Below, in pieces: positions 20,216 to 48,900 of a stretch of 64,000 nt of DNA. Position 1 is the first letter of the stretch. Each line of letters starts with the position of its first letter. This stretch comes from Candidatus Freyarchaeum deiterrae (GTDB lineage: Archaea; Asgardarchaeota; Jordiarchaeia; Jordiarchaeales; Jordiarchaeaceae), in the NCBI GenBank assembly GCA_037305845.1, contig CP147778.1:96001-160000 (forward strand). The letters run 5' to 3'. The position numbers were made by a program, and so were the translations under genes. The notes below the pieces were generated by a model. That model was not told the origin of the DNA. It saw only the letters and a program-made list of their open reading frames with translations, and made no database searches.

Positions 20216-21607
20216 TCAATTAACCTTGGTTACCTGTACACTGCCCGCAGTCTCCACGTTGCCCGCGTTATCGGTGGACCTAAAGTATACGGTTGTGGTC
20301 CCCTTGGCTGAGATGATGAAAGGACCGGTGTAGGTGATCCAGTTGCTGGTGCCGTTTATGCTGTACTGCGTCAAAGCTACACCTGAAATGTTGTCCGTAG
20401 CTGTGAGTGTGACGGTTACGTTCGAGGTGTACCCGCCGCTACCCGTGGTGCCGCTCAGACTATATTTGGTCACTGGAGGGGTTCTGTCGATCTTCACCGT
20501 TACGTTGTTCATGCTCTCCACGTTGCCCGCGCTGTCGGTTGAGTTGTAGTACAGGGTTGTGGTTCCCTGAGCCGTGATGGTGAACGTACCGGTGTAGTTG
20601 GTCCAGCTGCCGGTGCTGTTTAATTTGTACTGAGTCTTAGTTGTGCCTGAGTATTTACTAGATACTGTGAGTGTGACTGTTACGTTGGAGGTATACCAGC
20701 CGTTACTCCCTAGAGTGCCGCTTAAGTTGTAAGTGGTCACAGGGGCATAGTCGATACTTATTTTTACGTTACTCGTAGTCCCGGTGTTGTTAGCGAGGTC
20801 GATTGACCGATAGTACAGGGTTGTGTTTCCCTTGGCTGTGATGGTGAACGGAGTACCGGTGTAGTTGGTCCAGCTGCCGGTGCTGTTTATGCTGTACTGC
20901 GTCAAAGCTACACCTGAAATGTTGTCGGTTGCTGTGAGTGCAACGGTTGCATTCCAGGCGTACCCGCCGTTACTCCTCTTAGTGCCGCTTACACTGCTGA
21001 TTGTGGTCACTGGAGGGGTCTTGTCAATCTTCACCGTTACGGAATTTAGGTAATAGTTGCCCGCGTTATCGAATGAGCCGTAGTATACGGTTGTGACTCC
21101 CTGGGTTGAGATGGTGAAAGAAGTAGTGTAGGAGACCGGGTTGCTGGTGCCGTTTATGCCGTAATATGTTCCAGAAATGCCTGAAACGCTGTCGGCCGAT
21201 GCTAGAGTAATGTTTACATTGGAGGTGTACCAGCCGTTAAGCCCCTTAGTGCCGCTCAGACTGGCTGTGGTCACTGGAGGGGTCTTGTCAATCTGTATAA
21301 TGCCAAGGTAAATGTGATAAGGCTCTATATTGAGAGCATTGTCGTACGACCCATAGTACAGGGTGTGCTTGCCCTCGGCTGAGATGGTGAAAGTACCATT
21401 ACAGTAGATCCAAGTGCCGTTGTTGTCTAACATATAGCAATATATCAAAACGCCTGAAGTGCTGTCGGTCGCGTTGAGTGTAAAGGTCACATCAGAGATG
21501 TACCACCCGTTGTTGAAAGGCCCTAGTGTGCCGCTTACACTGCTGATTGTGGTCACTGAAGGAGTCTTGTCAATCTTTACCGTTACATTATTTATGTTCT
21601 CTACCAC
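20216..21607 (-). CDS. C-terminal fragment of the large repeat surface protein (separated by frameshift)
   Basis: Same ~88-aa IDKTPP...NGWY.S.V.VTL.A.D..SGV...D.AGN repeats as 21588..27152. Confidence 0.8.
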   Translation of the reverse strand: MVENINNVTVKIDKTPSVTTISSVSGTLGPFNNGWYISDVTFTLNATDSTSGVLIYCYMLDNNGTWIYCNGTFTISAEGKHTLYYGSYDNALNIEPYHIYLGIIQIDKTPPVTTASLSGTKGLNGWYTSNVNITLASADSVSGISGTYYGINGTSNPVSYTTSFTISTQGVTTVYYGSFDNAGNYYLNSVTVKIDKTPPVTTISSVSGTKRSNGGYAWNATVALTATDNISGVALTQYSINSTGSWTNYTGTPFTITAKGNTTLYYRSIDLANNTGTTSNVKISIDYAPVTTYNLSGTLGSNGWYTSNVTVTLTVSSKYSGTTKTQYKLNSTGSWTNYTGTFTITAQGTTTLYYNSTDSAGNVESMNNVTVKIDRTPPVTKYSLSGTTGSGGYTSNVTVTLTATDNISGVALTQYSINGTSNWITYTGPFIISAKGTTTVYFRSTDNAGNVETAGSVQVTKVN

Positions 21608-24600
21608 GTTGCCCGCGTTGTCGGTTGAGTTGTAGGATAGGGTGTGGACTCCTTCTGCCGAGATTGTGAAAGGAGCAGTTTTGCATTTTAAACCCTGTAA
21701 ATTTATTCCCTACCTTTGTGTGGACTCCTTCTGCCGAGATTGTGAAAGGAGCAGTGTAGGTGATCCAGTTGGCGCCGTCTAGGCTATACTTTATCGTCTT
21801 AACGCCTGACGCGTTGTTATTCGGTGTGAGTGTGACTGTTACGTTAGATTTGTACCAACCGTAAAGCCCCGCAGTGCCGTTTAAGCTAATAAGGGTCATT
21901 GACATTGCGACAGCTATTGTTTTTGTATAATCCATTTGGCCCGCGTAGTCGGTTGAGTTAAAGTATACTGTTGTGGTTCCCCAGACTGTGATGTTGAAAG
22001 GACCATTGTAGGTTTTCCAGTTGGTCCCGTCAAAGCTGTACTGTGTCAGAGCTACGCCTGAACTGTTGTCAGTCGCGTTAAGTGTGACAATCACATTCGA
22101 GATGTACACTCCGTTAACCTGTATGCCGTTTAAGCTGATTGTGGTCACTGGAGGAGTCTTGTCAATCTTTATTGTTGCATTACTTATATTGTATTCACCA
22201 GCGTTGTCGATTGACGCATAGGATAGGTTGTGGACTCCTTCGGTTGAGATGGCGAACGGACCATTGTAGAGGAACCAGCCATTGCTGTCTAACATATACC
22301 CAGTCATCCAAACGCCTGAAATGTTGTCGGTCGCGTTGAGCGTGACATTCACATCCGAGGTGTACCAGCCGTTACTCCCCCGCGTGCCGTTTAAGCTGAT
22401 TGTGGTCACTGGAGGAGTCTTGTCAATCTTCAGCGTTACATTGTTCGTTTTCTCCGCGTTGCCCTTGTTATCGGTCGAGTTGTAGTAAAGGGTGTTGATT
22501 CCCTCAGCTGAGATGGTGAACGGAGCGGTGTAGTTGGTCCAATTGTTGCTGTTCAATTTGTATCCTGTTGTCCAAACTTTTGTAGCGTTGTCTGTGGCGT
22601 TGAGTGTGACGGTTACATTTGAGGTATACCAGCCGTTAAGACCCTGGGTGCCGTTTAGTTTTACGGAGGTCACCAGGGGAGCCCTCTGAATAGTTATTGT
22701 TCTGGTGCTTGTGTTCTCCACGTTGCCCGCGTAGTCGGTTGAGTTGTAGGCTATGGTGTGGACTCCGTTGGTTGAGATGTTGAACGGACCGGTGTAGTTA
22801 ACCCAGCTGCTGCTATCCAATTTGTACCCCGTTATTATGGGGAGAGCCGTACAGTTGGTGGCTGAGGCGTTTTTGGTCGTGTTGAGTATGAAGTTTAAAT
22901 TCAGGAGGTTGGATGCTGCTGCAGCGGTGTCGGTCGCTTTAAGTGTGACGATTACGTTCGAGGTGTACGTGCCGTTACTCGCCTGGACGCCGTTCAAACC
23001 GATACTGGTCACTGGAGGAGCCTTGTCAACAAGTATTGGTTCAATATGTACATCCTCAATGTTTCCTGCAAAGTTGATTGACCTGTAGTACAGAATTGTG
23101 ACCCCTTCGTTTGAGATGGTTGTTGAGGTAGAGAGTGGCTTGGCGCTGGTGTTGCCCTGGTTAGTTGTTCGGGTGAGGAACGGAAAATAGAAGGTCTGGT
23201 TGGTTGAGACGGTGAGTGAACCATTGTAATTGAACCAGTTGATACAGTCAAAGCTATACTCAACCATAGCAATGCCTGAAGTACCAGTGGTTCCTGTGAG
23301 ATTAACGTTCACATCCGAGGTATACCAGTGGTTTTGCCCCAGTGTGCCGCTTAAATTTATGTTGGTCGCTGTAGGGGTCTTGTCAACCATTACTGTTGCA
23401 CTACTTGCGTTCTCAACGTTGCCCACGTTATCGGTTGACTTGTAGTATATGGTTGTGGTTCCCTCATTTGAGATGGTGAACGGACCAGTGAAATTGGTCC
23501 AGTTGGTGGTGCCGTTTATGCTGTATTGAGTTATAGCTACGCCTGATTCGCTGTCGGTCGGGTGGAGTGTGACGTCAACATCGGAGGTGTACCAGCCGTT
23601 AAGCCCCGGTGTAGCGTTCAAACTAGCTGTGGTTACTGGTGGAGTCTTGTCAATATTTACAGTTATGTTACCAGAATTCACGTTGCTCGCGTCATCAATT
23701 GACCTGTAGTATATGGTTGTGGTCCCCTCGGTTGAGATGGTTATTGATATGTTAGATGGTGGAATATATATCCAAAGGGGGATTTTCAACCACCCAATGT
23801 CCCAGAAGCCTATAAAATACAACTGACCGTTGTAGGTGTACCAGTTGGTGCCGTCGAAGCTGTACTGTATAGTAGTAACGCCTGAAACGGAGTCATTTGT
23901 TGTGAGTGTGAAATTCACATCAGAATTGTACCAACCGCTAAGCGTCTGGGTGCCAGTGCTACTCAAACCTGTTGTAACTACTGGCGGGGTCTCGTCAATC
24001 TTTACCTCATATATACCTGCTGGGTACTCTACGTTGCCAGCGTTATCAGTTGAGTTGAAATATATGTCTTTGATCCCCTCGGCTGAGATGATGAAAGGTC
24101 CGGTGTAATTGATCCATTCGCTGTCGTTTAAGCTGTACTGGGTCATAGCTACACCTGATGTACTATCGGTTGCTGTGAGTGTGACAGTTATGTTTGAGGT
24201 GTACCAGTTGTCTCTTCCCAGCGTGCCGCTCAAGCTAATTAAGGTCACCGGTGGAGTCTTGTCAATCATTATTGTTACGTTTTTTGCACTCTCCACATTG
24301 CCAGCCAAGTCGATTGATTGGTAATAGAGGGTTGTGATTCCCTCGGTTGTGATAATGAGTGAACCGGTATAGGTGTTCCAGTTGACGCCGTCAAGGCTGT
24401 ACTCCGTCTTAATGGAAGCGCCTGGAGCGTTGTCGGTCGCGTTGAGTATGACGTTCACATCGGAGGTGTACCAGTTGTTAAGCCCCGGTGTGCCGCTTAG
24501 ATTAGCTGTGGTTATTGGAGTAGACTTGTCAATCATTATTGGTACATTACTTGTAGTCTCCACATTACCCCCTTTGTCGACTGAATAGTAGTACAGGGTT

Positions 24601-27152
24601 GTGGTTCCCTCATTTGAGATGGTGAACGGACCGGTGTATAAATACCAAGTGGTATTGTCGAAACTGTACTCTGTCGCAGCAATCTGTGGGCCGTTGCTGG
24701 TCACCGATAGAGTGACCCTCACGTTTGATATGTACCAGCCGTTAAGCCCCGGTGTGCCACTAAAACTAGCTGTGGTCCATGGAGGAACCTTGAGCACTTG
24801 TATTGTTTTTGTGTCCTCCACATTGCCCGCATTATCAATTGACCTGTAGTATAAGTTTGTGGTTCCCATTTTTGTAATGGCGAACGGACCAGTGTAATTG
24901 AACCAGTTTACGCCGTCGAAGCTGTTCTCTGTACTGCTCACGCCTGAAATGCCGTCTCTTGCTGTTAGTGTGACGTTCACATCGGTGGTGAACCCTCCAC
25001 TTATCCCCTGTGTGCTGCTTAAAAGTGTACCGTTTAGATTGATATTGGTTACTGGTGGAGTCTTGTCGATCAGCACGGATATGTTGTTTGTGTTCTCCAC
25101 ATTGCCCACCAAGTCGATTGAGCGGTAATAGAGGGTTGTGTTCCCCTCGCTTGTGATGATGAATGGATTGGTGTAGGTGTTCCAGTTGGTGGTGCTATTG
25201 ATGCCGTACTGCGTAAGAGCTACGCCTGAAGCATCGTCTGTTGCGGTGAGTGTGACTGCTACTTTTGAGGTGTTCCAGCCGTTAAGTCCCTGGATGCCGC
25301 TTAAACTAGCTGTGGTTGCTGGAGGATTCTGGTCGACATATATCGTCATGGTGTTGGTCGGTTCCGTGTTGCCGGCGACGTCGACTGACCTGTAGTACAG
25401 AGTTGTGGTGGTTGATATCGTGGGTAGATTGCTGGAGTTGTAGATAATCCAATTGGTGCCATCAGTGCTGTACTCCGTCCTGTCTATGGCTAAGCCTAAA
25501 ATGCTGGTTGCTGTGAATGTTAAGATAACATTGGAGGTGTACCATCCGTTAATTGGTCCAGTGCCACTTAAGAGAATACTGGTCGACGGAGCCTTATTGA
25601 TCGTTATTGTAATACTCTTTGTTTGTTCCATGTTCCCTGCTTCATCGGTTGAGTTGTAGTATATGGTTGTGGTTCCTGCATTTGAGATGGTGAACGGACC
25701 GGTGTATAAATTCCAGGTTTTATTATCGAAACTGTACTCCGTCGCCCAAATTTTTGGGCCGCTGCTGGTTGCCGATAGAGTTACCCTCACGTTTGAGATG
25801 TACGAGTCACCGTTTCCTTTAATGCCGCTTAAACTAGCACTGGTCGAGGGGGGTGGAACATCGTCGAACCATATGAAAGAGCCTGCTCCGATGTAGTACC
25901 AGAAGCCAATAAACCAAGCAATCATAATATTGACATTATTATCAGCAAGTATATAGCACACTCCTTGGTCGGGACATATCTGCTCAGTTGCGCCATCATA
26001 CGCTACAACAAAGTTTTGCATATATGAAAAGCCAGCTACCAGTTCCCAAGCTGGGCAAATCAGGTGAAATGTCGTGAGTTCCATGAAACCAAAAGCGGGA
26101 TCATTATCCAAATTGAAGAGATAAGTCTGGTATATAACGTTAAAATCGTTTTCCAACTGGGTTGAATAATCTAGTAATGCTGCTTCAATTATTGCGTCTA
26201 TTAAAGCTCCAATAGGGTTAACCTTCAGAGCAATCATAGCTACCTCTGCTATTGCACTTAGTGAAACGTCCACATATGGATTAATTTCGAGTCCTTCATG
26301 GTCATAATAGAGGACATTAAGTGCTGAGTTTACGAATAAATACGCTTGATTATCCGCAGTAGGATACTGAACTATTGCTCCGCATTCAAAGCCGTATAGG
26401 ATACATATGCAACACCACCACCAAAAGTATACAAAATAATACAGCGGCAGAATCATTTCCATTACCCATGGGTCTGAGATCAGTGTTCCATTGAGATCGT
26501 ACACCGACGTTTTGAGGACATACATTGTTGTTCCGTTTACGTCCATTGCGTAGTCTCCTGTAACCTGTATGCAGTTGGTGCCGTTTATCGTTATAGTTTG
26601 GTTCCACTCTTTTACCAGTGTACCCTCGGTGGTGACGAGGCTCATGTAATTGGAAGTGGCTACTTCTTTTGTGAACTGGATCATGTTGGCTTGTATCTCT
26701 TGGCTGAGTAGTTGGTCGTACTGTTTGAAGAGTTTCTGGTCTTTGGGGTTTTCGGACAGGAACTGGGTGAACATTTTGGTGACGGTCGCGTTATCACGCG
26801 AGCTGGCTGCAGTCATCATCCTTTCTGTGCTGCTCAGCGTCCAAGTTTTGAAGTCCTCGTTTATCCGGGCTTGAACACCCTCCTTTGTGGTGTTCTGGTT
26901 GATGTTGTTTAGCAGGTCTGGGTTCATTGTATTCTGGGGGTTGAGTGAGTTGGGGGTTGTGGTGCTCATGGAGTTGGAGGTTGGTGCTTGCTTCTGGTTA
27001 AGGAGCGCCGCTAGATTGAGATTCGGGTATCCTGAGGAGGGTATTTTGTTGGTCTGCACTGCTATGATGCCTGTTCCTATGGTTAGCGTTAACACTGCTA
27101 GAAACACTACGAGCACTGTTCTAATGCTTTTCTTCACTCTTATTTCTCCCAA
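21588..27152 (-). CDS. Large secreted/surface protein with tandem Ig-like (OmpL47-type) repeats; frameshifted near 21.7 kb (restored gene 27152->20216, 2286 aa)
   Basis: N-terminal hydrophobic signal/anchor; roughly 20 repeats across both fragments; many N-x-S/T sequons; removing 76 bp gives 6861 nt = 2287 codons. Confidence 0.85.
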   Translation of the reverse strand: MGEIRVKKSIRTVLVVFLAVLTLTIGTGIIAVQTNKIPSSGYPNLNLAALLNQKQAPTSNSMSTTTPNSLNPQNTMNPDLLNNINQNTTKEGVQARINEDFKTWTLSSTERMMTAASSRDNATVTKMFTQFLSENPKDQKLFKQYDQLLSQEIQANMIQFTKEVATSNYMSLVTTEGTLVKEWNQTITINGTNCIQVTGDYAMDVNGTTMYVLKTSVYDLNGTLISDPWVMEMILPLYYFVYFWWWCCICILYGFECGAIVQYPTADNQAYLFVNSALNVLYYDHEGLEINPYVDVSLSAIAEVAMIALKVNPIGALIDAIIEAALLDYSTQLENDFNVIYQTYLFNLDNDPAFGFMELTTFHLICPAWELVAGFSYMQNFVVAYDGATEQICPDQGVCYILADNNVNIMIAWFIGFWYYIGAGSFIWFDDVPPPSTSASLSGIKGNGDSYISNVRVTLSATSSGPKIWATEYSFDNKTWNLYTGPFTISNAGTTTIYYNSTDEAGNMEQTKSITITINKAPSTSILLSGTGPINGWYTSNVILTFTATSILGLAIDRTEYSTDGTNWIIYNSSNLPTISTTTTLYYRSVDVAGNTEPTNTMTIYVDQNPPATTASLSGIQGLNGWNTSKVAVTLTATDDASGVALTQYGINSTTNWNTYTNPFIITSEGNTTLYYRSIDLVGNVENTNNISVLIDKTPPVTNINLNGTLLSSTQGISGGFTTDVNVTLTARDGISGVSSTENSFDGVNWFNYTGPFAITKMGTTNLYYRSIDNAGNVEDTKTIQVLKVPPWTTASFSGTPGLNGWYISNVRVTLSVTSNGPQIAATEYSFDNTTWYLYTGPFTISNEGTTTLYYYSVDKGGNVETTSNVPIMIDKSTPITTANLSGTPGLNNWYTSDVNVILNATDNAPGASIKTEYSLDGVNWNTYTGSLIITTEGITTLYYQSIDLAGNVESAKNVTIMIDKTPPVTLISLSGTLGRDNWYTSNITVTLTATDSTSGVAMTQYSLNDSEWINYTGPFIISAEGIKDIYFNSTDNAGNVEYPAGIYEVKIDETPPVVTTGLSSTGTQTLSGWYNSDVNFTLTTNDSVSGVTTIQYSFDGTNWYTYNGQLYFIGFWDIGWLKIPLWIYIPPSNISITISTEGTTTIYYRSIDDASNVNSGNITVNIDKTPPVTTASLNATPGLNGWYTSDVDVTLHPTDSESGVAITQYSINGTTNWTNFTGPFTISNEGTTTIYYKSTDNVGNVENASSATVMVDKTPTATNINLSGTLGQNHWYTSDVNVNLTGTTGTSGIAMVEYSFDCINWFNYNGSLTVSTNQTFYFPFLTRTTNQGNTSAKPLSTSTTISNEGVTILYYRSINFAGNIEDVHIEPILVDKAPPVTSIGLNGVQASNGTYTSNVIVTLKATDTAAAASNLLNLNFILNTTKNASATNCTALPIITGYKLDSSSWVNYTGPFNISTNGVHTIAYNSTDYAGNVENTSTRTITIQRAPLVTSVKLNGTQGLNGWYTSNVTVTLNATDNATKVWTTGYKLNSNNWTNYTAPFTISAEGINTLYYNSTDNKGNAEKTNNVTLKIDKTPPVTTISLNGTRGSNGWYTSDVNVTLNATDNISGVWMTGYMLDSNGWFLYNGPFAISTEGVHNLSYASIDNAGEYNISNATIKIDKTPPVTTISLNGIQVNGVYISNVIVTLNATDNSSGVALTQYSFDGTNWKTYNGPFNITVWGTTTVYFNSTDYAGQMDYTKTIAVAMSMTLISLNGTAGLYGWYKSNVTVTLTPNNNASGVKTIKYSLDGANWITYTAPFTISAEGVHTKVGNKFTGFKMQNCSFHNLGRRSPHPILQLNRQRGQRGREHK
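21642..21755. repeat. Exact 38-bp direct repeat (21642-21679, 21718-21755) flanking a 38-bp unique insert (21680-21717)
   Basis: GTGTGGACTCCTTCTGCCGAGATTGTGAAAGGAGCAGT twice around TTTGCATTTTAAACCCTGTAAATTTATTCCCTACCTTT. Confidence 0.95.
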
Positions 27153-37370: not shown

Positions 37371-38168
37371 ATGCCTTCAGTTAATGTTAATGGTTTAAAG
37401 ACGTTCTATGAATCCAAAGGAGAAGGGAGACCATTGCTTCTGATACACGGAGCTGGTGGTACCAACGCGTACTGGGGTATCCAGCTTTCCGAACTATCAA
37501 AGAAGCTTAGAGTTATTGCCATCGATCTGCCGGGGCATGGAAAGACCGAGCACCTGAAAGAAAAGGCTACTACAGAACGATACGCTGAACATGTAGCTGG
37601 TTTCATGAAGCAGATTAAACTTAACCATGCAACTATACTGGGCCACTCAATGGGTGGAATTATAGTTCAACAACTAGCCTTGAAACATTCCGAGCTGTTC
37701 GAGAAACTCATTATAGTTGACAGCTCTGCTAATTTTCCTGGTCTACCCGGAACTTCGAACCAACCCGGAAATTCGGAAGCCCTTCGCAACTTCTTTCTCA
37801 ATCAACCACCTGAGGTGCTTCAGAGGGTAATTATATCTAGGCTTTTCTCTAAGAAAACGCTCGAAGAAGGACACCTATCCCCCTTGCTGAAATACCTTCC
37901 GCAGGACGCGGTTTCTGACCCTAGCATTTGGGTTACCGATTTTGAGGCTGGACGGGGAGTGGACTTGAGAGAGAAGATTAAAGATATCAAGATTCCAACA
38001 CTGATAATGGCAGGGGCAGATTCCCTAATTCCCATCTCAATGGCCCAGCTCATGCATGAAAACATTAAGGGTTCGGTGCTTGAAGTGATTCCCGATGCAG
38101 GGCACATGCTTATGCTGGAAAAACCAGACCTATTTAACGAGGCTATTCTAAGGTTCATTGAATCGTGA
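37371..38168 (+). CDS. Alpha/beta-fold hydrolase
   Basis: IHGAGG, DLPGHG, GHSMGG, AGH. Confidence 0.92.
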   Translation: MPSVNVNGLKTFYESKGEGRPLLLIHGAGGTNAYWGIQLSELSKKLRVIAIDLPGHGKTEHLKEKATTERYAEHVAGFMKQIKLNHATILGHSMGGIIVQQLALKHSELFEKLIIVDSSANFPGLPGTSNQPGNSEALRNFFLNQPPEVLQRVIISRLFSKKTLEEGHLSPLLKYLPQDAVSDPSIWVTDFEAGRGVDLREKIKDIKIPTLIMAGADSLIPISMAQLMHENIKGSVLEVIPDAGHMLMLEKPDLFNEAILRFIES

Positions 38169-38298
38169 TTTTCGTCAACCTACTTTTTTTATCACATAAT
38201 TCATTTGGAGTGGAGTCTACAAAGTTTAGTCAGCTAAATTTAAAAGAAGCATTAATGAGATAATACTTTAAGCTTGGATTTGAAGAGGTTAATTCGAC

Positions 38299-39066
38299 AT
38301 GCCTTTAGTTAATGTTAATGGCTTGAAGACATTTTACGAGTCCAAAGGGAAAGGAAGACCATTGATTCTGATACATGGGGCGGGTGGCAGCAGTGAGTAC
38401 TGGGATATTCAGCTTTCCGAACTCTCAAAGAAGCTCAGAGTCATTGCTATCGATTTGCCGGGGCATGGAAAGTCCGAGCGCCTGAAAGAAAGGGTATCCA
38501 TAGAGCAGTACGCTGAGCACGTAGCTGGTTTCGTAAAGCAAATTAAACTCGACCAAGCGATTATATTAGGTCACTCAATGGGTGGACTGGTGGTTCAGCA
38601 ACTAGCCTTAAAGCATCCTGAGCTAATCGAGAAACTCATTATAGTTGACAGCTCTGCTAAGTTTCCCGGTTCCGGTTCACTGGGATTTGCGGATCTCGTT
38701 CGCAACCAACCTGAAAAGCTTAGCGAACTCTTGCCCATGTTCTTTTCTAAGAAAACCCGCTCAGAAGGGAACTTGGCTTCAATACTGAAACACCTTGAGC
38801 CGAGTTCGGTTTTTGACCCTAACATTGTAGCTGACGATTTTGAGGCCACAGATGCGGTAGACTTAAGAGAGAAGATTAAAGGGATCACTGTTCCAACACT
38901 GATAATGGTTGGAGCAGAGGACATACTTCCCCTCTCACTGTCACAATTTCTCCATGAAAGCATCAAGGAATCGGAGATTGAAATAATTCCCGACGCAGGG
39001 CACCTGCCCATGCTTGAAAAACCAGACGAATTTAACAAGGCTATTCTAAGGTTCATTGAATCATGA
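38299..39066 (+). CDS. Alpha/beta-fold hydrolase, tandem paralog
   Basis: Same motifs; high identity to 37371..38168. Confidence 0.92.
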   Translation: MPLVNVNGLKTFYESKGKGRPLILIHGAGGSSEYWDIQLSELSKKLRVIAIDLPGHGKSERLKERVSIEQYAEHVAGFVKQIKLDQAIILGHSMGGLVVQQLALKHPELIEKLIIVDSSAKFPGSGSLGFADLVRNQPEKLSELLPMFFSKKTRSEGNLASILKHLEPSSVFDPNIVADDFEATDAVDLREKIKGITVPTLIMVGAEDILPLSLSQFLHESIKESEIEIIPDAGHLPMLEKPDEFNKAILRFIES

Positions 39067-39165
39067 TTTTCGTGAACCTAATCCTTTTATTTTATAATTC
39101 AGTTAGGCGGGGAAAGAGTTTAAAAAGTAATAATTGATTGTTTTCTTAATCATGAGTTGTAGTGG

Positions 39166-39750
39166 ATGATTATGCCCGGTAAAAAAGTTTTGATTGCTTA
39201 CGGTACTCGTTATGGAAGCACGGAAGAAATTTCCCAAGAGATTGGGAAGATTTTGAAAAAAGAGGGACTGGAAGTTCAAATTGTTGATCTTAAGAAAACG
39301 AAGTCTAAGGAATGGCCTTCTTTGACACCGTTTGATGGAGTTCTAGTCGGGTCTAGTGTTAAGATGTTCAGATGGATGAATGAGCCCCAGGAATTTCTCA
39401 AGAAACACAAAGCGGAAATCCAGAAGAAAGAGAAGATTCTTGGCGTGTTTGTGAGTTGTGGCATGGCTTCGGTTCCAGAAACTTGCGAGAAGGCGAAGAG
39501 TGATGAAGTGGAGAAAATTTTGGCTAAGATAGGAATTGAAGCGGATATTTATGATGCCTTCGGAGGAGTTTACGATTTTTCTGAATCTTCGAGAATGAGT
39601 GGCATGGACAAAAGAATGATGAAGATGGGCTTAAAACAAATGGAAAAAGATTATGGTATGAAAATAGATGAAGAGGGAAAAAATGATTTTCGGGACTGGG
39701 AACAGATTCAGAATTTCGCAAAAAAATTTGCAGCAATGGTAAAGAAATAA
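39166..39750 (+). CDS. Flavodoxin-domain protein (HemG-like)
   Basis: YGTRYGSTEEI FMN loop, FGG, DFRDW. Confidence 0.88.
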   Translation: MIMPGKKVLIAYGTRYGSTEEISQEIGKILKKEGLEVQIVDLKKTKSKEWPSLTPFDGVLVGSSVKMFRWMNEPQEFLKKHKAEIQKKEKILGVFVSCGMASVPETCEKAKSDEVEKILAKIGIEADIYDAFGGVYDFSESSRMSGMDKRMMKMGLKQMEKDYGMKIDEEGKNDFRDWEQIQNFAKKFAAMVKK

Positions 39751-39775
39751 ATGGATATCATTTGTGAAACAAGAA

Positions 39776-39872
39776 TTCGGTGCTTGAAGTGATTCCCGAC
39801 GCAGGGCACATGCTTATGCTGGAAAAACCAGATGAATTCAACGCAGCTATTCTAAGGTTCATTGAAGCATAA
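39776..39872 (+). pseudogene. 3' remnant of an alpha/beta hydrolase
   Basis: SVLEVIPDAGHMLMLEKPDEFNAAILRFIEA*, near-identical to the 3' end of 37371..38168. Confidence 0.9.
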
Positions 39873-39972
39873 TTTTTGCTACCTAACCCTTTTTTCACAG
39901 CATATCTCATTTAGGCTAGGAAAGAGTTTTAAATTAATAATTGATTGTTCTTTTAATCATGAGTTGTAGTGG

Positions 39973-40557
39973 ATGATTATGCCCGGCAAAAAAGTTTTGA
40001 TTGCTTATGGTACTCGTTTTGGGAGCACGGAGGAGATTTCCCAAGAGATTGGGAAGATTTTGGAAAAAGAGGGACTGGAAGTTCAACTAGTTGATCTTAA
40101 GAAAACGAAATCTAAGGAATGGCCTTCTCTGGAAAACTTTCATGGAGTTCTAGTCGGGTCCAGTATTGCGATGGGTAAGTGGATGAATGAGCCCCAAGAA
40201 TTTCTCAAGAAACACAAAGCTGAAATCCAGAAGAAAGAGAAGATTCTGGGCTTGTTTGTGTGTTGTGGCTCGGCTTCGTTTCCCGAAACATGTGAGCAGG
40301 GGAAGAGTGATTACTTGGAAAAAGTTATGGCCAAAATAGGAATCGAAGCGGATATTTATGAAGCCTTCGGAGGAGTTTATGATTTTTCTGAATCCTCAAG
40401 AGTGAGTGGCATGGCTAAAGGAGCGCTGAAGATGGCAGCGAAATATATGAACAAAAATCAAGGTACGCAAATAGATTTGAACGGAAGGAATGATTTCCGA
40501 GACTGGGAGCAGATTCAGAATTTTGCAAGAAAATTTGCAGCGATAGTAAAGAAGTAA
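39973..40557 (+). CDS. Flavodoxin-domain protein (HemG-like), tandem paralog
   Basis: Near-identical to 39166..39750. Confidence 0.88.
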   Translation: MIMPGKKVLIAYGTRFGSTEEISQEIGKILEKEGLEVQLVDLKKTKSKEWPSLENFHGVLVGSSIAMGKWMNEPQEFLKKHKAEIQKKEKILGLFVCCGSASFPETCEQGKSDYLEKVMAKIGIEADIYEAFGGVYDFSESSRVSGMAKGALKMAAKYMNKNQGTQIDLNGRNDFRDWEQIQNFARKFAAIVKK

Positions 40558-40645
40558 ATGGATACCATTTGTTAAAACAAGAAAGAAGTCTGTGGGAAAC
40601 CAAAATCAAACCCTTACTTAATCTTACCTTGACAGCGCCTATTTT

Positions 40646-42121
40646 TTATTTTACTCTGTATATTATGACTCCCTGGGAGAGGAGTGGAAGTTCGATTTCG
40701 TAGAGTGGACTTGTTTGAAGGTGTGCTAAAACTATTGGAGACACATAGTCTGATAGGCTTACACAGATTGCTCTAACATATCCACTTTGAGCCAAGGCAT
40801 CAACCGCAGATGGTAAGTCTGGTATCCAAAGGCACACTCTGTCTGTATACTGCCTGGCCATAGGGTAAGTGTTTGTGAGTATTACCTGCCAAGGAAGTGT
40901 GGTGTACTTCAAGTATTCGTAGGCGGGGATTGGTGCTGAAAGTTCGGCCATAGTGCGTACAGCGTAAACTCCTACTATGCCTGTGGAAAGGTTAAGGAGA
41001 ATCAAGAGAATTGCTAGTTTTTTCCTGCCCTTAAGAAAGCTTTTTCCATTTTTGAGTTGAAACTCGTTTGTTAGCATCATTGCTAGGCCTAATCCGGTGA
41101 GTATACTAACCGCTGGTAGCGAGGTTTGATTGTACCTTAGGAAGTCTACGAGGCGGGCGTCTGAATTAATTAGAGGGTAGACTACAAGGAACAATGCCAC
41201 CCAGAGGATTAGGGATATTGCCTGAGTTGTTTTCCACTCCTTTTTTATAGCTAAAAAGAAGTACGGGAAGAGGAAGAGGGATACAAAAAATGGAGCTGCT
41301 GCAAAAGCAATTGTCTCTAGGTCCCAGAGAATTGTCTGTGTAGCTGTTTGTGGAAGGATTTGGATAAGGGTTCTACTCCAGTACTGGTTTATAGTGGAGT
41401 ACACACTGAGTAGACCGAAATAACTTGTAGTAATCATTTGACTGTAAAGAAGCCAAGGTAATACAGTTAGAAAGGAGCAAAGCAAACCCAAGTAGAGCCA
41501 GGGTGACTTAATGGTTCTGATAGTTCCCTTTGACGCAATAATATAAGCGAGACCAACGAAGGCTATGAGAATCCCGGGGTATCTTGAGAGAAAGCTTAGG
41601 GCTAATGAAACTCCTGCTGGTATGTAGTACTTTGTGTTCTTCTGAGCCCTTACCAAACACAGTAAAAAGAGCGTTGAGAAGAGTATGAATGGAATCTCTG
41701 TAAGTAGTCCTAAGAGAAAAGAAAAGCCGAGACAACCGCTTGTTAGAGCTAGGGTGGCGTATTTTCCGACACTTTCACTGTAAAGCTCCTTTCCAAGCAG
41801 GTATACAACATACAGGGCGGGCAAAGTAATAAGATAAACAACATATTGTGCAACTATGATATTTGGTCCTGTTAAGAGATAGGCGAAGTATAATGTGAAG
41901 GTGAGGAGGGCAGGTCTTGAGAAATCGAGTAATTGCTGGATGCTGTAGATGTAATGAACGCCGAAGTAGTAAAAGTCACTTGCCAGATTGACGTATACAG
42001 CTTCATCCCAAGTTAGAGGCACGGGAACAGCTGCTAAAACGCCTCTAGCCACTGTGATTAGTATTATGACTTTTATCGTCCAGTCAAGTTCTCTAAGCCG
42101 CCCCAGCATTTTAACCACCAA
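40646..42121 (-). CDS. ArnT/PMT-like (GT-C fold) membrane glycosyltransferase
   Basis: WDEAVY motif after TM1, RP motif, multiple TM helices. Confidence 0.85.
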   Translation of the reverse strand: MVVKMLGRLRELDWTIKVIILITVARGVLAAVPVPLTWDEAVYVNLASDFYYFGVHYIYSIQQLLDFSRPALLTFTLYFAYLLTGPNIIVAQYVVYLITLPALYVVYLLGKELYSESVGKYATLALTSGCLGFSFLLGLLTEIPFILFSTLFLLCLVRAQKNTKYYIPAGVSLALSFLSRYPGILIAFVGLAYIIASKGTIRTIKSPWLYLGLLCSFLTVLPWLLYSQMITTSYFGLLSVYSTINQYWSRTLIQILPQTATQTILWDLETIAFAAAPFFVSLFLFPYFFLAIKKEWKTTQAISLILWVALFLVVYPLINSDARLVDFLRYNQTSLPAVSILTGLGLAMMLTNEFQLKNGKSFLKGRKKLAILLILLNLSTGIVGVYAVRTMAELSAPIPAYEYLKYTTLPWQVILTNTYPMARQYTDRVCLWIPDLPSAVDALAQSGYVRAICVSLSDYVSPIVLAHLQTSPLYEIELPLLSQGVIIYRVK

Positions 42122-42480
42122 AAACGATTCTTATTTGAGTTCAAGTTATATAAAAACTATTCTGTGTAATTGGGGGTGAAACTGGTTTTCCTGTGATTTT
42201 TAAGAGAAACTAAAACCATAAACAGTTAATTTTCTCCTCCTCCTGCATAAACCTTGCAATCAGCTAGGAATGAATTCTTAATTTCCAATCTGTACCTAGA
42301 AAAATAGAAAAAAATGAGCTAATTGTGGGTTGATTTTTCGGTTATAACGCATTCTTATTTCGAGTTATGAAACTGAGAAGCCAATATACTTTCTAATTGG
42401 TTATTCCACGAGTTAACGGTCCGATTTTTAAATAATTAACTTAAAAAAAAATAAAAGAGACTTGCCGACTCTTAGTTTTA

Positions 42481-43203
42481 TTGGAGGCTCTTCGATTGAG
42501 TGAAGAGAGAATAAGCTACGGAATTTACTCGCCGGGTGTTCTTGGTGTTTTTATTTTAGGGATAGTAGTGTGCTTTTTCCTCTACTTAATATTTAACAGT
42601 CTTGTTATAAAATACATTATCCCATTAATTATAATTGCATTAGCCATTATTATTGGATTAATATTTTATGAAAGCAGCAGCCCCCTAAGAGTTAAGCGCA
42701 GCGAAATACTTGTAGAGTTCGCCGAACCCAAGGACAATTCTCTCATGCTCGATGTGGGAACAGGCCGGGGATTGGTTGCGATAATACTCGCGAAGGCTTG
42801 TAAAAACTGCAAGGTAATCGGAATCGACACCTGGTCCCCCGTCGCTTTGTCTGGCGTCTCCGGAAACACTATGGAAAATGCGGAGAAAAACGCGGAAATC
42901 GAAAAAGTAAGCCGCAAAGTTAAATTCCAGCAGGCCGACGCTCAAAAACTACCCTTCCCCGACAACACCTTTGACCTAGTTGCCGCCCACGAGGTTCTAG
43001 ACACCATGGTCGTCGGAAGAGACAAAGCATTAAGGGAAATATACCGGGTTACAAAAAAGGGAGGAAAATTTGTTTTCTCAACAGCCTTATCAAAATATAT
43101 CTTAATCAGAAAATGTGCCAAATTAGGATTCAGGAAATTTCAATCCGAGTGGCTTGGCTTAAAAGAAGGACCCATAACCTACTATGTTCTATGCACAAAA
43201 TAA
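42481..43203 (+). CDS. Membrane-anchored class I SAM-dependent methyltransferase
   Basis: LDVGTGRG, DAQKLPFPDNTFD; two N-terminal TM helices. Confidence 0.88.
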   Translation: MEALRLSEERISYGIYSPGVLGVFILGIVVCFFLYLIFNSLVIKYIIPLIIIALAIIIGLIFYESSSPLRVKRSEILVEFAEPKDNSLMLDVGTGRGLVAIILAKACKNCKVIGIDTWSPVALSGVSGNTMENAEKNAEIEKVSRKVKFQQADAQKLPFPDNTFDLVAAHEVLDTMVVGRDKALREIYRVTKKGGKFVFSTALSKYILIRKCAKLGFRKFQSEWLGLKEGPITYYVLCTK

Positions 43204-43228
43204 AAGAAGTTTATTGAGGAAAAACAGT

Positions 43229-44458
43229 TTAAAAGTCTGTTGATGGGAAATTTATTCGTTCTAAGTACTCGCTAGCAAGTTCATGGTTGTGTTCATTGTG
43301 TTCAAGAATTTCTTTGCTTTTTAGAACTTGTCTCTCAATCCGATCCAAACCCAGGTGGAAGGTTTCGTCTACATTCCAGCCTTCGGCGGAGCTGAAATAG
43401 TTTCCCTTCAGAGTTCTCAGCTGAAGCCGGCAGTGGACAATTCTTTCTCCCCTGTGGGTTGCGCCGTGTGTTTTCAAGTAAACGAAAAGTGTGCCGAATT
43501 CTAGTATTTTTTCGAATCGGCTTCGGAATGCATCGAATTCTTTCATCATATAATCTCGTTGTGATTCGTCTATGTCCAATTCTTTGACTGCGAACTGTAT
43601 GGAAAGCGTCTGTTGTTTCATTTCCATTTGGGCTATTGGCTCCAGAAAATCTCTTTTCGTCACGATTCCTGCGAGGTTTGCTCCCCTGACAACTACTAAT
43701 GAGGAAATGTCTGAGTCATGCATTTTTTTCTCAGCTTCCTTCAGGCTAGTTTCAGGTGGAACCGTAATTAGGGGGCGTGACATTATATTCTTCACCGAAG
43801 CGGTCAGAGTCTCGACTTTCGCTCTCCCAACTGTTTCGCCAAACCTTTCGGGCTGCGTCGGTTTAAAGAAATGATCAATAACATCTCGAATACTCACCAT
43901 CCCTACAGGCTTTCCATGGCTAATTACGGGTGCGTGAGAGATGTTGTGCTCCTTGAAGATGTTCAGCAGCCCTCCTATCGACTCGTCTTCATTAACAACA
44001 ATGAGCTGTTTATTCATTATTCCTTCAATTTTATTTTCGCCCCACTCTGTCATCACTGCTCCATGAATAATATGTTCGTCCGTGACAACACCCACAAGCT
44101 TCCCTTCATTGAAAACTGGAAGCGCCACAAGATTATTCTCTATCATCAAAGTAGCCGCCTTACTGAGAGAATCCTCCTCTCTAACCTCGGGGGCTGAACG
44201 CATCAATTTCTCTACTTTAGTTTTAGATGGATCAATCTGCCTCGACCGGACTATCCATTTTCGCGCCAATAAACCTTCATATTTGCCTCTGTTATCCAAG
44301 ACAATTAATACTGGTACAGTTCCTTTTTTGAAGAGCTCGAGGCACTGGGAAAGTGTGTCCTCATTACTAACGCTGGCGAATTTCTTCGAAAAAACTTCTC
44401 CGACAGTAGTGCTTGAACTCATATCTTCACTCCTTCTTTCTTTTCCTAAAAAATCCAA
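43229..44458 (-). CDS. 4xCBS-domain protein with C-terminal HPF/RaiA-like domain (candidate ribosome hibernation factor)
   Basis: Two CBS pairs (LPV..LVGVVT, APV..VGMVS, LVV..AGIVT); C-terminus SAEGWNVDETFHLGLDRIERQV. Confidence 0.8.
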   Translation of the reverse strand: MDFLGKERRSEDMSSSTTVGEVFSKKFASVSNEDTLSQCLELFKKGTVPVLIVLDNRGKYEGLLARKWIVRSRQIDPSKTKVEKLMRSAPEVREEDSLSKAATLMIENNLVALPVFNEGKLVGVVTDEHIIHGAVMTEWGENKIEGIMNKQLIVVNEDESIGGLLNIFKEHNISHAPVISHGKPVGMVSIRDVIDHFFKPTQPERFGETVGRAKVETLTASVKNIMSRPLITVPPETSLKEAEKKMHDSDISSLVVVRGANLAGIVTKRDFLEPIAQMEMKQQTLSIQFAVKELDIDESQRDYMMKEFDAFRSRFEKILEFGTLFVYLKTHGATHRGERIVHCRLQLRTLKGNYFSSAEGWNVDETFHLGLDRIERQVLKSKEILEHNEHNHELASEYLERINFPSTDF

Positions 44459-44775
44459 TTAACACCAAAAATTAATGATGATGTTACCCTGCGTTTGGAT
44501 GTTTTCTTTCGATGCTTGATAAATTCCGTCAGTATGGGAAATTCTTTCTAACGTTTATATTGATGATATCATACTGATATATAAGAGTTAGGAAATAATC
44601 AAACAAATAGTCTTTCTGGAGTAAAAAGGAGGGAGCCCCTTTTAGTACTTACTTCTTTTCTGATCTGGTTGGAGGAAGGTAAGCTGAAAAGTTGAATACT
44701 TAAATATTTGTATAACAATTGTCACTAATAGATAATTATTTTAAAAAGGCCTTGTGCACTTGAATTTTTGGTGGT

Positions 44776-45909
44776 TTGATTTTTATGGTTAAAGAAGATG
44801 TTTATGAAAACATTCGGCTAATTATGAACAGAGGAACTGCTGTTAAACTGCCAAAACATAAAGCGGTTACCGAGATGCTTAAGAGTGTTTTCAGTAAAGA
44901 GGAAGGAACCCTCCTGAGTGTTTTTGAGAAAACTGGTCAGCCTCTAACCGCAGATAATATAGCGCAACTTTCTGGTGTTCCGAAGGAGAGAGTGGTTCAG
45001 GTTTTCGATGATATGGCTTACAAGGGAAAGCTGGTTAAGGCGGCTAATTTTTATGTCTTGCTGCCCTTCGTTCCAGGATTGTTTGAGGTTTACTTCACCC
45101 ACAATAGAGACAATCCCGAGAAAATGAAGAAAGCTGCCAAGGCGTACCGAGAATTATTCTATTCCGGTCACCCCTTCGAGCTAAGTGCAGGTGGCTATAC
45201 CCTTTACCGTGTTATACCTGCTGTGGAGCCCACCGAGAAAACAATCGAAATAAACAAATCACTGGAAGTACAGCGTCAGGTTTTACCATACGAGATTCTG
45301 AAGGAGTACCTTTCAAAAGCCGATCTGCTCGCCGTGGTTCCCTGCAGCTGTCGAACCGCAGCCAAATACGCGGGTCATCCCTGCGAACGGACCGATGAAA
45401 ATTTCTGCGTCACTACGGGATTCCTCGCAAAGAGCGTAATCGACGAAGGGGTGGGTCGTCAGGTCACCCTAGACGAGCTCATGGAGATTATGAAGAAAGC
45501 TGAGAAGGCGGGACTGGTGCACGAAACAATAAACATACAGGACACCTCGGTATTCATCTGCAACTGCTGTCCCTGTTGCTGCGGCTTCCTAAAATCGGTC
45601 AAGGAATTCCAAAACTACAACGCCATAACAAAGGCAAACTTCCTCCCCCGAACCAATAATGATCTATGCAGTAAGTGCGAAAAATGCGTAGAAATCTGCC
45701 CCATGGACGCTCGATACCACCACTGGCCCCACTCGGAAGACCTATCCGACAACATGATAATAACGAGAGAAGACCTATGCATAGGCTGCGGTGTCTGTGC
45801 TTCCAACTGCCCAAAGGAAGCTATCACCCTCGAAAAAGTCAGAGACATCGTACCAGTTAAAAACCAAGCCGAGATGGACCAAAAATTCAAGGAAGGAAGA
45901 GTCCACTAA
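44776..45909 (+). CDS. 4Fe-4S dicluster protein with N-terminal wHTH-like region and Cys-rich core
   Basis: CSCR, CNCCPCCC, CSKCEKCVEICP, CIGCGVCASNCP. Confidence 0.88.
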   Translation: MIFMVKEDVYENIRLIMNRGTAVKLPKHKAVTEMLKSVFSKEEGTLLSVFEKTGQPLTADNIAQLSGVPKERVVQVFDDMAYKGKLVKAANFYVLLPFVPGLFEVYFTHNRDNPEKMKKAAKAYRELFYSGHPFELSAGGYTLYRVIPAVEPTEKTIEINKSLEVQRQVLPYEILKEYLSKADLLAVVPCSCRTAAKYAGHPCERTDENFCVTTGFLAKSVIDEGVGRQVTLDELMEIMKKAEKAGLVHETINIQDTSVFICNCCPCCCGFLKSVKEFQNYNAITKANFLPRTNNDLCSKCEKCVEICPMDARYHHWPHSEDLSDNMIITREDLCIGCGVCASNCPKEAITLEKVRDIVPVKNQAEMDQKFKEGRVH

Positions 45910-45998
45910 TTTTAACTCTCTACTTTTTAAAACCAGAGAAAAACATTGAAAAATAAGGCAAAATGGAAAAATTGCTGGCACTTCCAAGAGAAACAGTT

Positions 45999-48900
45999 CT
46001 AGATTAAATCTTCCTGGCTTAGCTTCTTCTTGCAACTTGGACAGTATCCCTTAACTTTGACCCACTCTAACAGGTGGTCTCTATGACTCAAGACGCCACA
46101 GTTAGGACACTCAAGGAACTGTTCTTCTGAGGTTACATACTGGTTGCACACGGAACATCGCGCAGTGATACTACCACAGACTGGACAGTACTTGGCGTCC
46201 TCGGGAACCTCGTGACCGCATTTTACACACTTGGGTTTTTCTGAAGTGGGTGCCGTTCTACTAACTTTAGGCGTTATATTAGGCTTAGGAACCTCTGTCT
46301 CTCTTTTTATCGGAGTAGGAGCCCTCTCATACCTATTTGGAGCCTCTGTCTGAGAAACTTGTTCTTCTCTCCTTCTGCGAGGAGTGGGAGCCGCCCTATA
46401 CCTAGTTGGTGTTTGTGCTTCCACTTCTGAAACCTGTTCTTCTCTCCGTCCTCTTAGCCCCAGCGCCGCAACAGTGACTACCGCAACCCCAACCAAGCCC
46501 AGAACCAAATAAATCAGGGGATTTAAGCCGCTCGGCGTAAACAATGAAAATAGTAGAAAGGGAAGATATGATGAAAAGGGAATTCCTAGAGGCATTGTGG
46601 TTCCGATTATAGCGAAATTAGATAGATGATCCGTATACGCGGTTACTGTGTTGTTTACCGTGTCTACGGTGCTTGGCAGCTGAGTCCAGTTTCCTGAAGT
46701 TGTGTCCAAGTAACATATCGCAAGAGAGCTTTCATTAAGACCGAGTTCCAAGACTTTCGAATCAGGGTAGTGAATAGTTATGTTGAATCCTAGAATCGCA
46801 GAAACATTTTCGGATATACTTACACAACTTTCCAGTATGGCTGAACCTGAGGGAACATATCCCCCTACACCACCTATCTTTCTTGACATGCTCAGCGAGA
46901 CCGAGTCATTAAGGTTTAAGAAAAGTTCAACACCCAACTCGCTGTAAGCGTTCCAAGGTTGTTGGTTTCCACTAGTAAATTCGTGGGTGAAAATCGAAAA
47001 AGATTGACTCTCTTCGCTTCCCCAACCTCCGTGGGTTGGTTCTGGGTCACATAAATTTTTTACAAAGCACCAATCAACTGTTACACTTGTACCAGTACCT
47101 CTTGCTCCAAAATTTAAACCCATATTAGCTTGAGGTATATTGGTCGTCATCTGAGCTTTTAAATTGTCGTCTTCGTAGAATTCGACGTCGTTTTTCCAAA
47201 TTATCTTTAAAATATGGTAAGAGCTTAAATCTGATGTTCTGGGTATACTAGTTGCAGAGCCTAATCTAAGTGTTTGATAAGCACTCAAATCAAACTCGGC
47301 AACATCACAGGAATTTATGGGATTGCCTGTTGCACTTCTATCATCCGCAGCCATTTGATATGCATTTTGTCCCCCTGCTTGTCCAGAGGCTTTAGCTCTG
47401 AAATAAAAAGCTCTTGGACTGTTGAATTGGACTTTAGCACCGATGAGTTCAAAATTGATACCTCCGTTACCCATAATTGTTAATTCGGTTCCAGACTCGG
47501 AATATGAACCGCCTGAATACCAGTTATACCATTTGTTTGTGTCCAAACTATTGTCATCAAAATGATCAAAGAATGCAAATGTGCTAGTCCCATTACTGGT
47601 TGTTGATGCATCATTTTTTCCATAATAAACACAAATAGTAGCTTTGTTTGGCGCAACTGGGATGGAATCTATTTCAACCCAGAAGGTTGCGTTATCACCA
47701 TCGGTTTTATCTTGCAACCAATAGTTTAGGAGGCTGGTTCCATCAGAGTTTGTGAACCTTACGTCCCCGAAATCATATCGGCAGTGAGCGTTGCAGTAGA
47801 CGTTCTCAGCGTTATCGGTACCGCTGCTATAATGCACCACTATTCTCATCTGGTAATTGGTCTGCGCACCCGCAGTACTTCCTGCTATCATATGCTGTTT
47901 ACAGTAAGCCCATCCGGACAGCCAGGGGTGTGTATATTCTTCTGTTCCCCAGGTTCCGTGGGTTGGTTCTGGGCTGGCGTAGTTGCGTACTCTCGCCCAG
48001 TCGTATTTGCACTCCGATGGTCTGGCTGCTCTTAGGTCGATGTAGAATGAGAAATCCGAAACTGTCTTGCTGCTGGAAGTAGCTCTTTCGGAATAATCTG
48101 GATTAATATACTTAGCACTAAAAACATTTCCATTTTTAATAATTTGAAATATTTTGTACGTTGTTGGTTGCGTCGTAACGTAATAATCCTCACTATTCCA
48201 AGAAGAACCAGTCCACCATGAGTGTCTTATGCGATCTGTACCCAAAAAGAAGTTTGTATCCGAATAAGAGAATGATTGACCGATTGGAGCACTTGTTATA
48301 TCCAACAATGGTGTTTGAACATCAATTGAACCACCGTCATATATTCCTTCAGCACTTGTTTCTATTATGCAATTGCTTTGCGTTATTGAATTATTTGTTT
48401 GGATATTCACATAACCAGTTCCGCTTGTTATCTTCATGTCTAACTCGCTATTAGAAACAGAAATCGAACCATAGGGATCCGTCTGCTGAACCCATTTAGT
48501 TCCATTCACTGAGTTGCCTAGAAAGTCGTCGAAGAAAATAAATGTGTTATCACCGCTGCTTGTGGTGGTTGCGTCACTCTTACCGTAATACACGCAAATA
48601 TTCACTGTGGCTGGGCTGGCGGGTATGCTGTTTATTTGGACCCAGAAGGTTGCGTTATCACCATCGTACTCGCTCTCCATCCAGTAGTTCAAGAGACTGG
48701 TCCCATCCGAATTCGTGAACCTTACGTCCCCGAAATCATATCGGCAGTGAGCGTTACAATAAACGTTCTCAGCGTTATCAGTACCGCTGCCATAATGAAC
48801 TACTATTCTCATCTGGTAACTGGTCTGCGCACCCGCAGTACTTCCAATTATTGTGAGGTTTTTACGGCAATTCCATCCTGAAAGCCAGGTATCTTTGGCA

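Follow-up and report, generated by a model that had tools for sequence, protein, structure and literature searches.

Probable off-target CRISPR spacer integration into a surface-protein gene of the Asgard archaeon Candidatus Freyarchaeum deiterrae

A gene of Candidatus Freyarchaeum deiterrae encoding a secreted or surface repeat protein is interrupted by an additional 76 bp, which consist of a short chromosomal fragment and a duplicate of the sequence into which it was placed. The interruption probably arose by full-site integration off target, a recent and single event of the type known as neo-CRISPR, carried out by the host Cas1-Cas2 (with Cas4). This reading, first proposed from the sequence alone, is supported because the duplication has the length of the host CRISPR repeat, the insert has the length of a spacer, its donor was identified, cas1, cas2 and cas4 are intact, and contigs from public sequencing runs cross the junctions. 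The source genome is the complete, manually curated genome of this wetland-soil archaeon (PMC11291895), a single contig of 3,576,204 bp, of which positions 96001-160000 form the window analysed here (64,000 nucleotides). Positions refer to the window unless the chromosome is named.

At the site, an exact 38-nt direct repeat (21642-21679 and 21718-21755, period 76) surrounds 38 nt. Removal of the 76 bp joins the two minus-strand open frames listed in Table 1 into one frame of 2286 aa with no internal stop, and also restores the domain consensus YT.PF.I...G..TL.YNSTD.AGNV, which is common to 16 other copies of the motif in the protein; the 76 bp are therefore regarded as an insertion into a once-intact gene. 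The sequence-only reading had described a unit of 38/38/38 bp. Its exact duplication, its frameshift and the 2286-aa frame after deletion all stand, but the division of the unit was revised, since the match to the donor extends one base into the first repeat copy, claiming base 21679, and thus covers 39/39 positions, one base beyond a 38-nt spacer. A 37-bp duplication with a 39-bp insert appears to be the better parse and 38/38/38 the less likely one, though the extra base could match by chance. The identity of the two duplication copies, the identity of the insert to its donor and the orphaned 3' frame, which is still open, point to a recent event.

Table 1. Features of the interrupted gene and of the insertion (window positions)
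Feature	Position	Strand	Description and evidence
Target-site duplication copy 1	21642..21678 (37 bp; 38 bp to 21679 in the alternative parse)		Exact repeat, donor match, host repeat length
Insert ('spacer')	21679..21717 (39 bp, 28% GC)		Exact copy of chromosome 1640727-1640765
Target-site duplication copy 2	21718..21754 (37 bp)		Exact repeat; junction contigs in X2, X4 and X5
5' part of the interrupted gene	21588..27152	-	1854 aa, made up of 1812 original and 42 new residues
Orphaned 3' part	20216..21607	-	463 aa from GTG; frame still open

The insert had been taken for unrelated, foreign DNA. A search of the host chromosome and of viral contigs, which the same reading had proposed for the 38-mer, found no match in the viral contigs and a 39/39 match to the minus strand of the chromosome, 1.52 Mb away; the insert is thus self DNA and not a copy of a local template. 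The donor is intergenic, lying within 3.2 kb that hold no long ORFs, upstream of cdc6 and the gene of the DNA polymerase small subunit, 2.8 kb upstream of cdc6 and about 0.7 kb from one ORB-like box. Three such boxes (chromosome 1639072, 1639834 and 1639994) were found with the ORB consensus, and the strict pattern occurs twice in the genome, both times here, so the region is a probable replication origin. Replication origins are among the reported hotspots of self-acquisition during primed adaptation in Haloferax type I-B, while no hotspots were seen in naive acquisition (10.64898/2026.05.08.723854); a hotspot at the origin of Ca. F. deiterrae is not shown by one event. The ORB-like boxes beside cdc6 (1639072-1640014) lie near the maximum of the cumulative GC skew (1.68 Mb, on a plateau of about 1.46-1.90 Mb). 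By the bacterial convention this maximum marks the terminus, and origin and terminus may be swapped in this genome if they are called from skew alone.

The presence of type I-B and type III CRISPR systems in Ca. F. deiterrae was reported previously (PMC11529989). Three large arrays, with 65, 79 and 79 repeats, have a common repeat of 37 bp, the same length as the duplication (38 bp if the ambiguous nucleotide is counted). Their 220 distinct spacers range from 34 to 42 nt with a mean of 37.6 (38 nt in 72/220 and 39 nt in 38/220), so that the 39-bp insert falls inside the spacer range. The genome has one cas1, which together with cas2 and cas4 adjoins the type I-B operon (Cas8b/Csh1, Cas7/Csh2, Cas5b, Cas3) at 57-67 kb of the chromosome, with type III genes alongside; cas1-cas2-cas4 are about 50 kb from the insertion. 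The frames of all three genes are open and their products score above the profile cut-off. Aligned along its length with the solved structure 4N06 of Cas1, the host Cas1 retains the E, H and E positions, the catalytic residues. Two cas6 genes, missed with PF01881, were found with PF10040. Cas1 genes were also identified in 5/5 congeneric genomes, and the arrays seen in three of these share the 37-bp repeat family. The host machinery thus agrees with the sequence-only reading, having a single intact cas1 and a repeat as long as the duplication. No array spacer matched the host chromosome over its full length (0/220), none matched the phage collection, and comparison with the five congeneric genomes gave matches to repeats or leaders only and no protospacers.

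Several other features of the arrays were observed. One spacer is present twice in the third array, 45 units apart and with 1 mismatch (chromosome 2677292 and 2680640), and the leader-proximal spacer of the first array (28078) shares 22/23 bases with a spacer of the third (2679601). Solitary or degenerate 37-bp repeats and two-repeat mini-arrays (37397-47352, 71480, 86555-89840, 192041 and 3559147) are scattered between genes, both near the cas region and far away. A one-spacer mini-array at 2683147-2683242 has a 30-bp repeat that is unique in the genome, despite the presence of only one cas1. Immediately next to the leader of the second large array are genes for a HerA-like ATPase and an unassigned 491-aa partner (chromosome about 75-78 kb). 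In a congener, one array spacer (G004:C163, from 21346) fuses the terminal 9-10 bases of a multi-copy IS-like end to 30 bases lying about 100 bp into that element. The assembly of the congener has no second instance of this junction, and the three preceding bases of the element are CCG. An excised circle or a nested insertion may be the source of such a spacer.

On the Cas1-Cas2 reading, the 39-bp fragment of the cdc6/ORB region would have been captured as a prespacer, and its 3' ends would have been joined to opposite strands 37 bp apart within the gene instead of at a leader-repeat junction; gap filling would then have duplicated the 37-bp target. As the flanks are not true repeats, no guide RNA would be made and the self-matching spacer may have been harmless and so survived. 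The tolerance of a perfect self-match, at odds with the array spacers of the host, could thus be explained by the lack of a guide RNA. The insertion unit is therefore described as a product like that of spacer acquisition, located outside the functional arrays and probably yielding no guide RNA. It had been called a nascent one-spacer array, but it resembles a scar more than a working array: no leader likeness was found in either flank of the insertion site, and the hairpin geometry of the target is unlike that of the host repeat.

The target itself has little in common with the repeat. Its palindrome and ATTGTGAAAG motif had been put forward as repeat-like features, a view that the comparison did not bear out: in register, identity to the host repeat is 13/37, which is reached by 13% of genome positions, or 10/37 (48%), and folding z-scores are 0.0 on the plus strand and -1.6 on the minus strand, so that the hairpin is no better than in shuffles. 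The insignificant identity and the absent leader likeness are weak points and were counted against the Cas1-Cas2 reading. In the 37-bp parse both borders are G/C. In vitro, Cas1-Cas2 of Pyrococcus furiosus performs full-site integration outside CRISPR loci, at sites that match the repeat at scattered bases only and whose G/C borders are spaced by one repeat length (PMC6698737). The low likeness of the Freyarchaeum target is compatible with such behaviour, but is no support for it, and a single event cannot show a ruler of Cas1-Cas2. The 37/39 parse also hangs on one base that possibly matches by chance.

On one strand the donor is bordered by TCA, on the other by CCT, and no protospacers of the array spacers were found. 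The triplet TCA, read on the coding strand of the gene, fits the TTN/TNA PAM of the type I-B system of C. thermocellum (PMC6926293), whereas the closest catalogued 37-bp repeats have TTA or TTN as PAM, not TCA or CCT (PMC8482600). The chance of a TTN, TNA or CCN triplet at one donor end or the other is 37%. The orientation with TCA is that of the better repeat match, in which the target starts with CT and the purine-pyrimidine pattern agrees in 9/9 of positions 16-24. The composition of spacer ends cannot orient the insert, the leave-one-out accuracy being 51-58%.

The same features leave some room for a process independent of Cas1, either an insertion system not yet described or the repair of a staggered break in which a short piece of the chromosome was captured or copied, for which the CRISPR sizes would be a coincidence. 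The self origin of the donor, a target without significant likeness to repeat or leader, and the putative nature of the PAM in the donor flank all agree with such a process, but it seems unlikely. The homology between donor and junction is 1 nt at one end and 0 at the other, which argues against template switching and leaves at most 1 nt of microhomology for a repair process, and the lengths of the duplication and of the insert are both at host CRISPR values. In addition, scans of the whole host genome for exact and degenerate duplications with periods of 25-400 yielded in-frame coding repeats, CRISPR mini-arrays, three short or low-complexity pairs and the site at 21642-21754, and no other event of this kind. 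Outside CRISPR arrays, no other site combined a unique duplication of at least 20 nt with a period that is not a multiple of 3 and an insert that has a further copy in the genome. Because the scan found only this one frame-breaking, distantly templated site, no general duplication-plus-insert process is visible in the Freyarchaeum genome, and its sole event has CRISPR dimensions.

The presence of the insertion in natural populations was assessed in public sequencing runs via assembled contigs, with 31-letter words: X2, the possible source run of the genome; X4, another sample of the same study; X5, from a second study, maybe of the same site; and X6. Contigs cross the repeat-insert and insert-repeat junctions in three runs of two studies (X2, X4 and X5). 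With contig depth as a rough guide only, the junctions had depths of 50.9 and 55 in X2 (flanks 55 and 52.3), 20 and 17.8 in X4 (flanks 16.7 and 17.3), and 10.8 and 6.8 in X5 (flanks 8.9 and 7.7). Mapping across the site had been proposed as a check on its reality, and the junction-crossing contigs at about flank depth speak in its favour. Among the listed contigs of X6 there was no junction piece, this run having other holes too, and no single listed contig piece in any run spans the whole insertion unit. No sign of an empty allele was found in the runs, in which a minority without the insertion would leave no word of its own, a 31-letter word being shorter than the repeat. Nor did a DNA comparison with 60 relatives reveal such an allele; with the query used, the repeat region of the protein had no close orthologue, and metagenome contigs, a collection that may lack near genomes, contained no empty allele either. 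Across 1.6 kb, the listings of four runs contain no sequence variants.

The product of the 5' part carries an N-terminal hydrophobic signal or anchor, a genus-wide domain of about 450 aa and 15 OmpL47-type beta-barrel repeats; its N-terminal region had no usable ESM Atlas match. The lost C-terminal part comprises 474/2286 residues with 5 OmpL47-type repeats and no membrane anchor. The proposed truncation of a surface-protein gene is thus confirmed as to the cut in the frame, but 79% of the protein is kept, including its only hydrophobic segment. The designation as an adhesin or virus receptor is not supported by the predicted domains, of which only OmpL47-type repeats could be recognised. OmpL47-repeat paralogues are encoded at chromosome 160111-161367 (within a 4015-aa open frame just past the end of the window), 1003030 and 3075887.

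An added claim, compatible with the Cas1-Cas2 explanation, is that the integration was selected because truncation of the surface protein is advantageous, for example as an escape from viruses, and that the 37-bp repeats permit reversion. Cas1 misfiring would then be a source of natural, selectable and reversible gene truncation, with recombination between the 37-bp copies switching the gene back on. Both the selective advantage and such a switch are improbable here. Three samples have the insertion at about the depth of its flanks and the gene does encode a secreted or surface repeat protein, but in the absence of listed variants over 1.6 kb in four runs the high frequency of the insertion can be explained by clonality without selection; moreover, there is no sign of the empty allele, most of the protein is retained and intact paralogues exist. 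The population carrying the truncated allele is probably clonal, and the allele itself probably close to neutral.

The footprint of an IS, MITE or casposon is very improbable and was largely refuted. Duplication of the target is a textbook mark of integrases and transposases in general, but the insert is present in two copies only, the donor copy has no flanking duplication, and there are no terminal inverted repeats, no multi-copy element with duplications, no transposase and no casposase, the only Cas1-family gene of the genome being inside the cas operon. The usual target duplications of IS elements are also far below 37 bp. Equally remote is an artefact of assembly or curation, namely a chimera of the surface gene and the cdc6 region: short reads were the basis of the curated genome (PMC11291895), X2 may be its source run, the whole unit is unspanned by any listed piece and X6 lacks a junction piece, but both junctions are found in contigs of three runs of two studies that were assembled independently of the host genome, and long-read support was given for the overall topology (PMC11291895).

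Integration by Cas1-Cas2 remains the most likely origin, and the event then belongs to a known kind of accident, of which the Freyarchaeum case is unusually clean and well documented. Spacer integration outside arrays has been described in E. coli, and two other species supplied putative cases from the wild (Nivala, Shipman and Church 2018, doi 10.1038/s41564-017-0097-z, as represented in 10.1101/148544 and PMC6698737). As far as these two sources describe it, neo-CRISPR shares with the Freyarchaeum unit a repeat-length duplication around one spacer-length fragment outside the arrays. The Freyarchaeum unit differs from what they describe in its occurrence, with no overexpression, in an Asgard archaeon from the wild that has type I-B/III systems and Cas4, and in having an exact donor, junctions in several environmental runs and a target with no significant likeness to the repeat. 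The P. furiosus Cas1-Cas2 (PMC6698737) is likewise an archaeal integrase that accepts non-CRISPR targets bordered by G/C at a spacing of one repeat, but on a plasmid in vitro and with a 30-bp ruler, whereas in Freyarchaeum a fixed chromosomal scar of 37 bp is found. In Haloferax volcanii type I-B, too, chromosomal DNA, origins included, serves as prespacer (10.64898/2026.05.08.723854), but these self-spacers enter true arrays, while the Freyarchaeum insert sits off-array.

The Freyarchaeum insertion is one event, probably close to neutral, and its kind has been published before. Most off-array integrations known from the wild are putative, and to these Ca. F. deiterrae adds one with donor, integrase, both lengths, read-derived support and a complete genome. 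It may serve as a ready substrate for testing the target needs of archaeal Cas1-Cas2, which are apparently little beyond spacing. As such scars probably yield no guide RNA, they may keep self-derived prespacers that true arrays lose, and pooled over genomes they could map the natural sources of prespacers and reveal whether Cas1 acts as a true mutagen.
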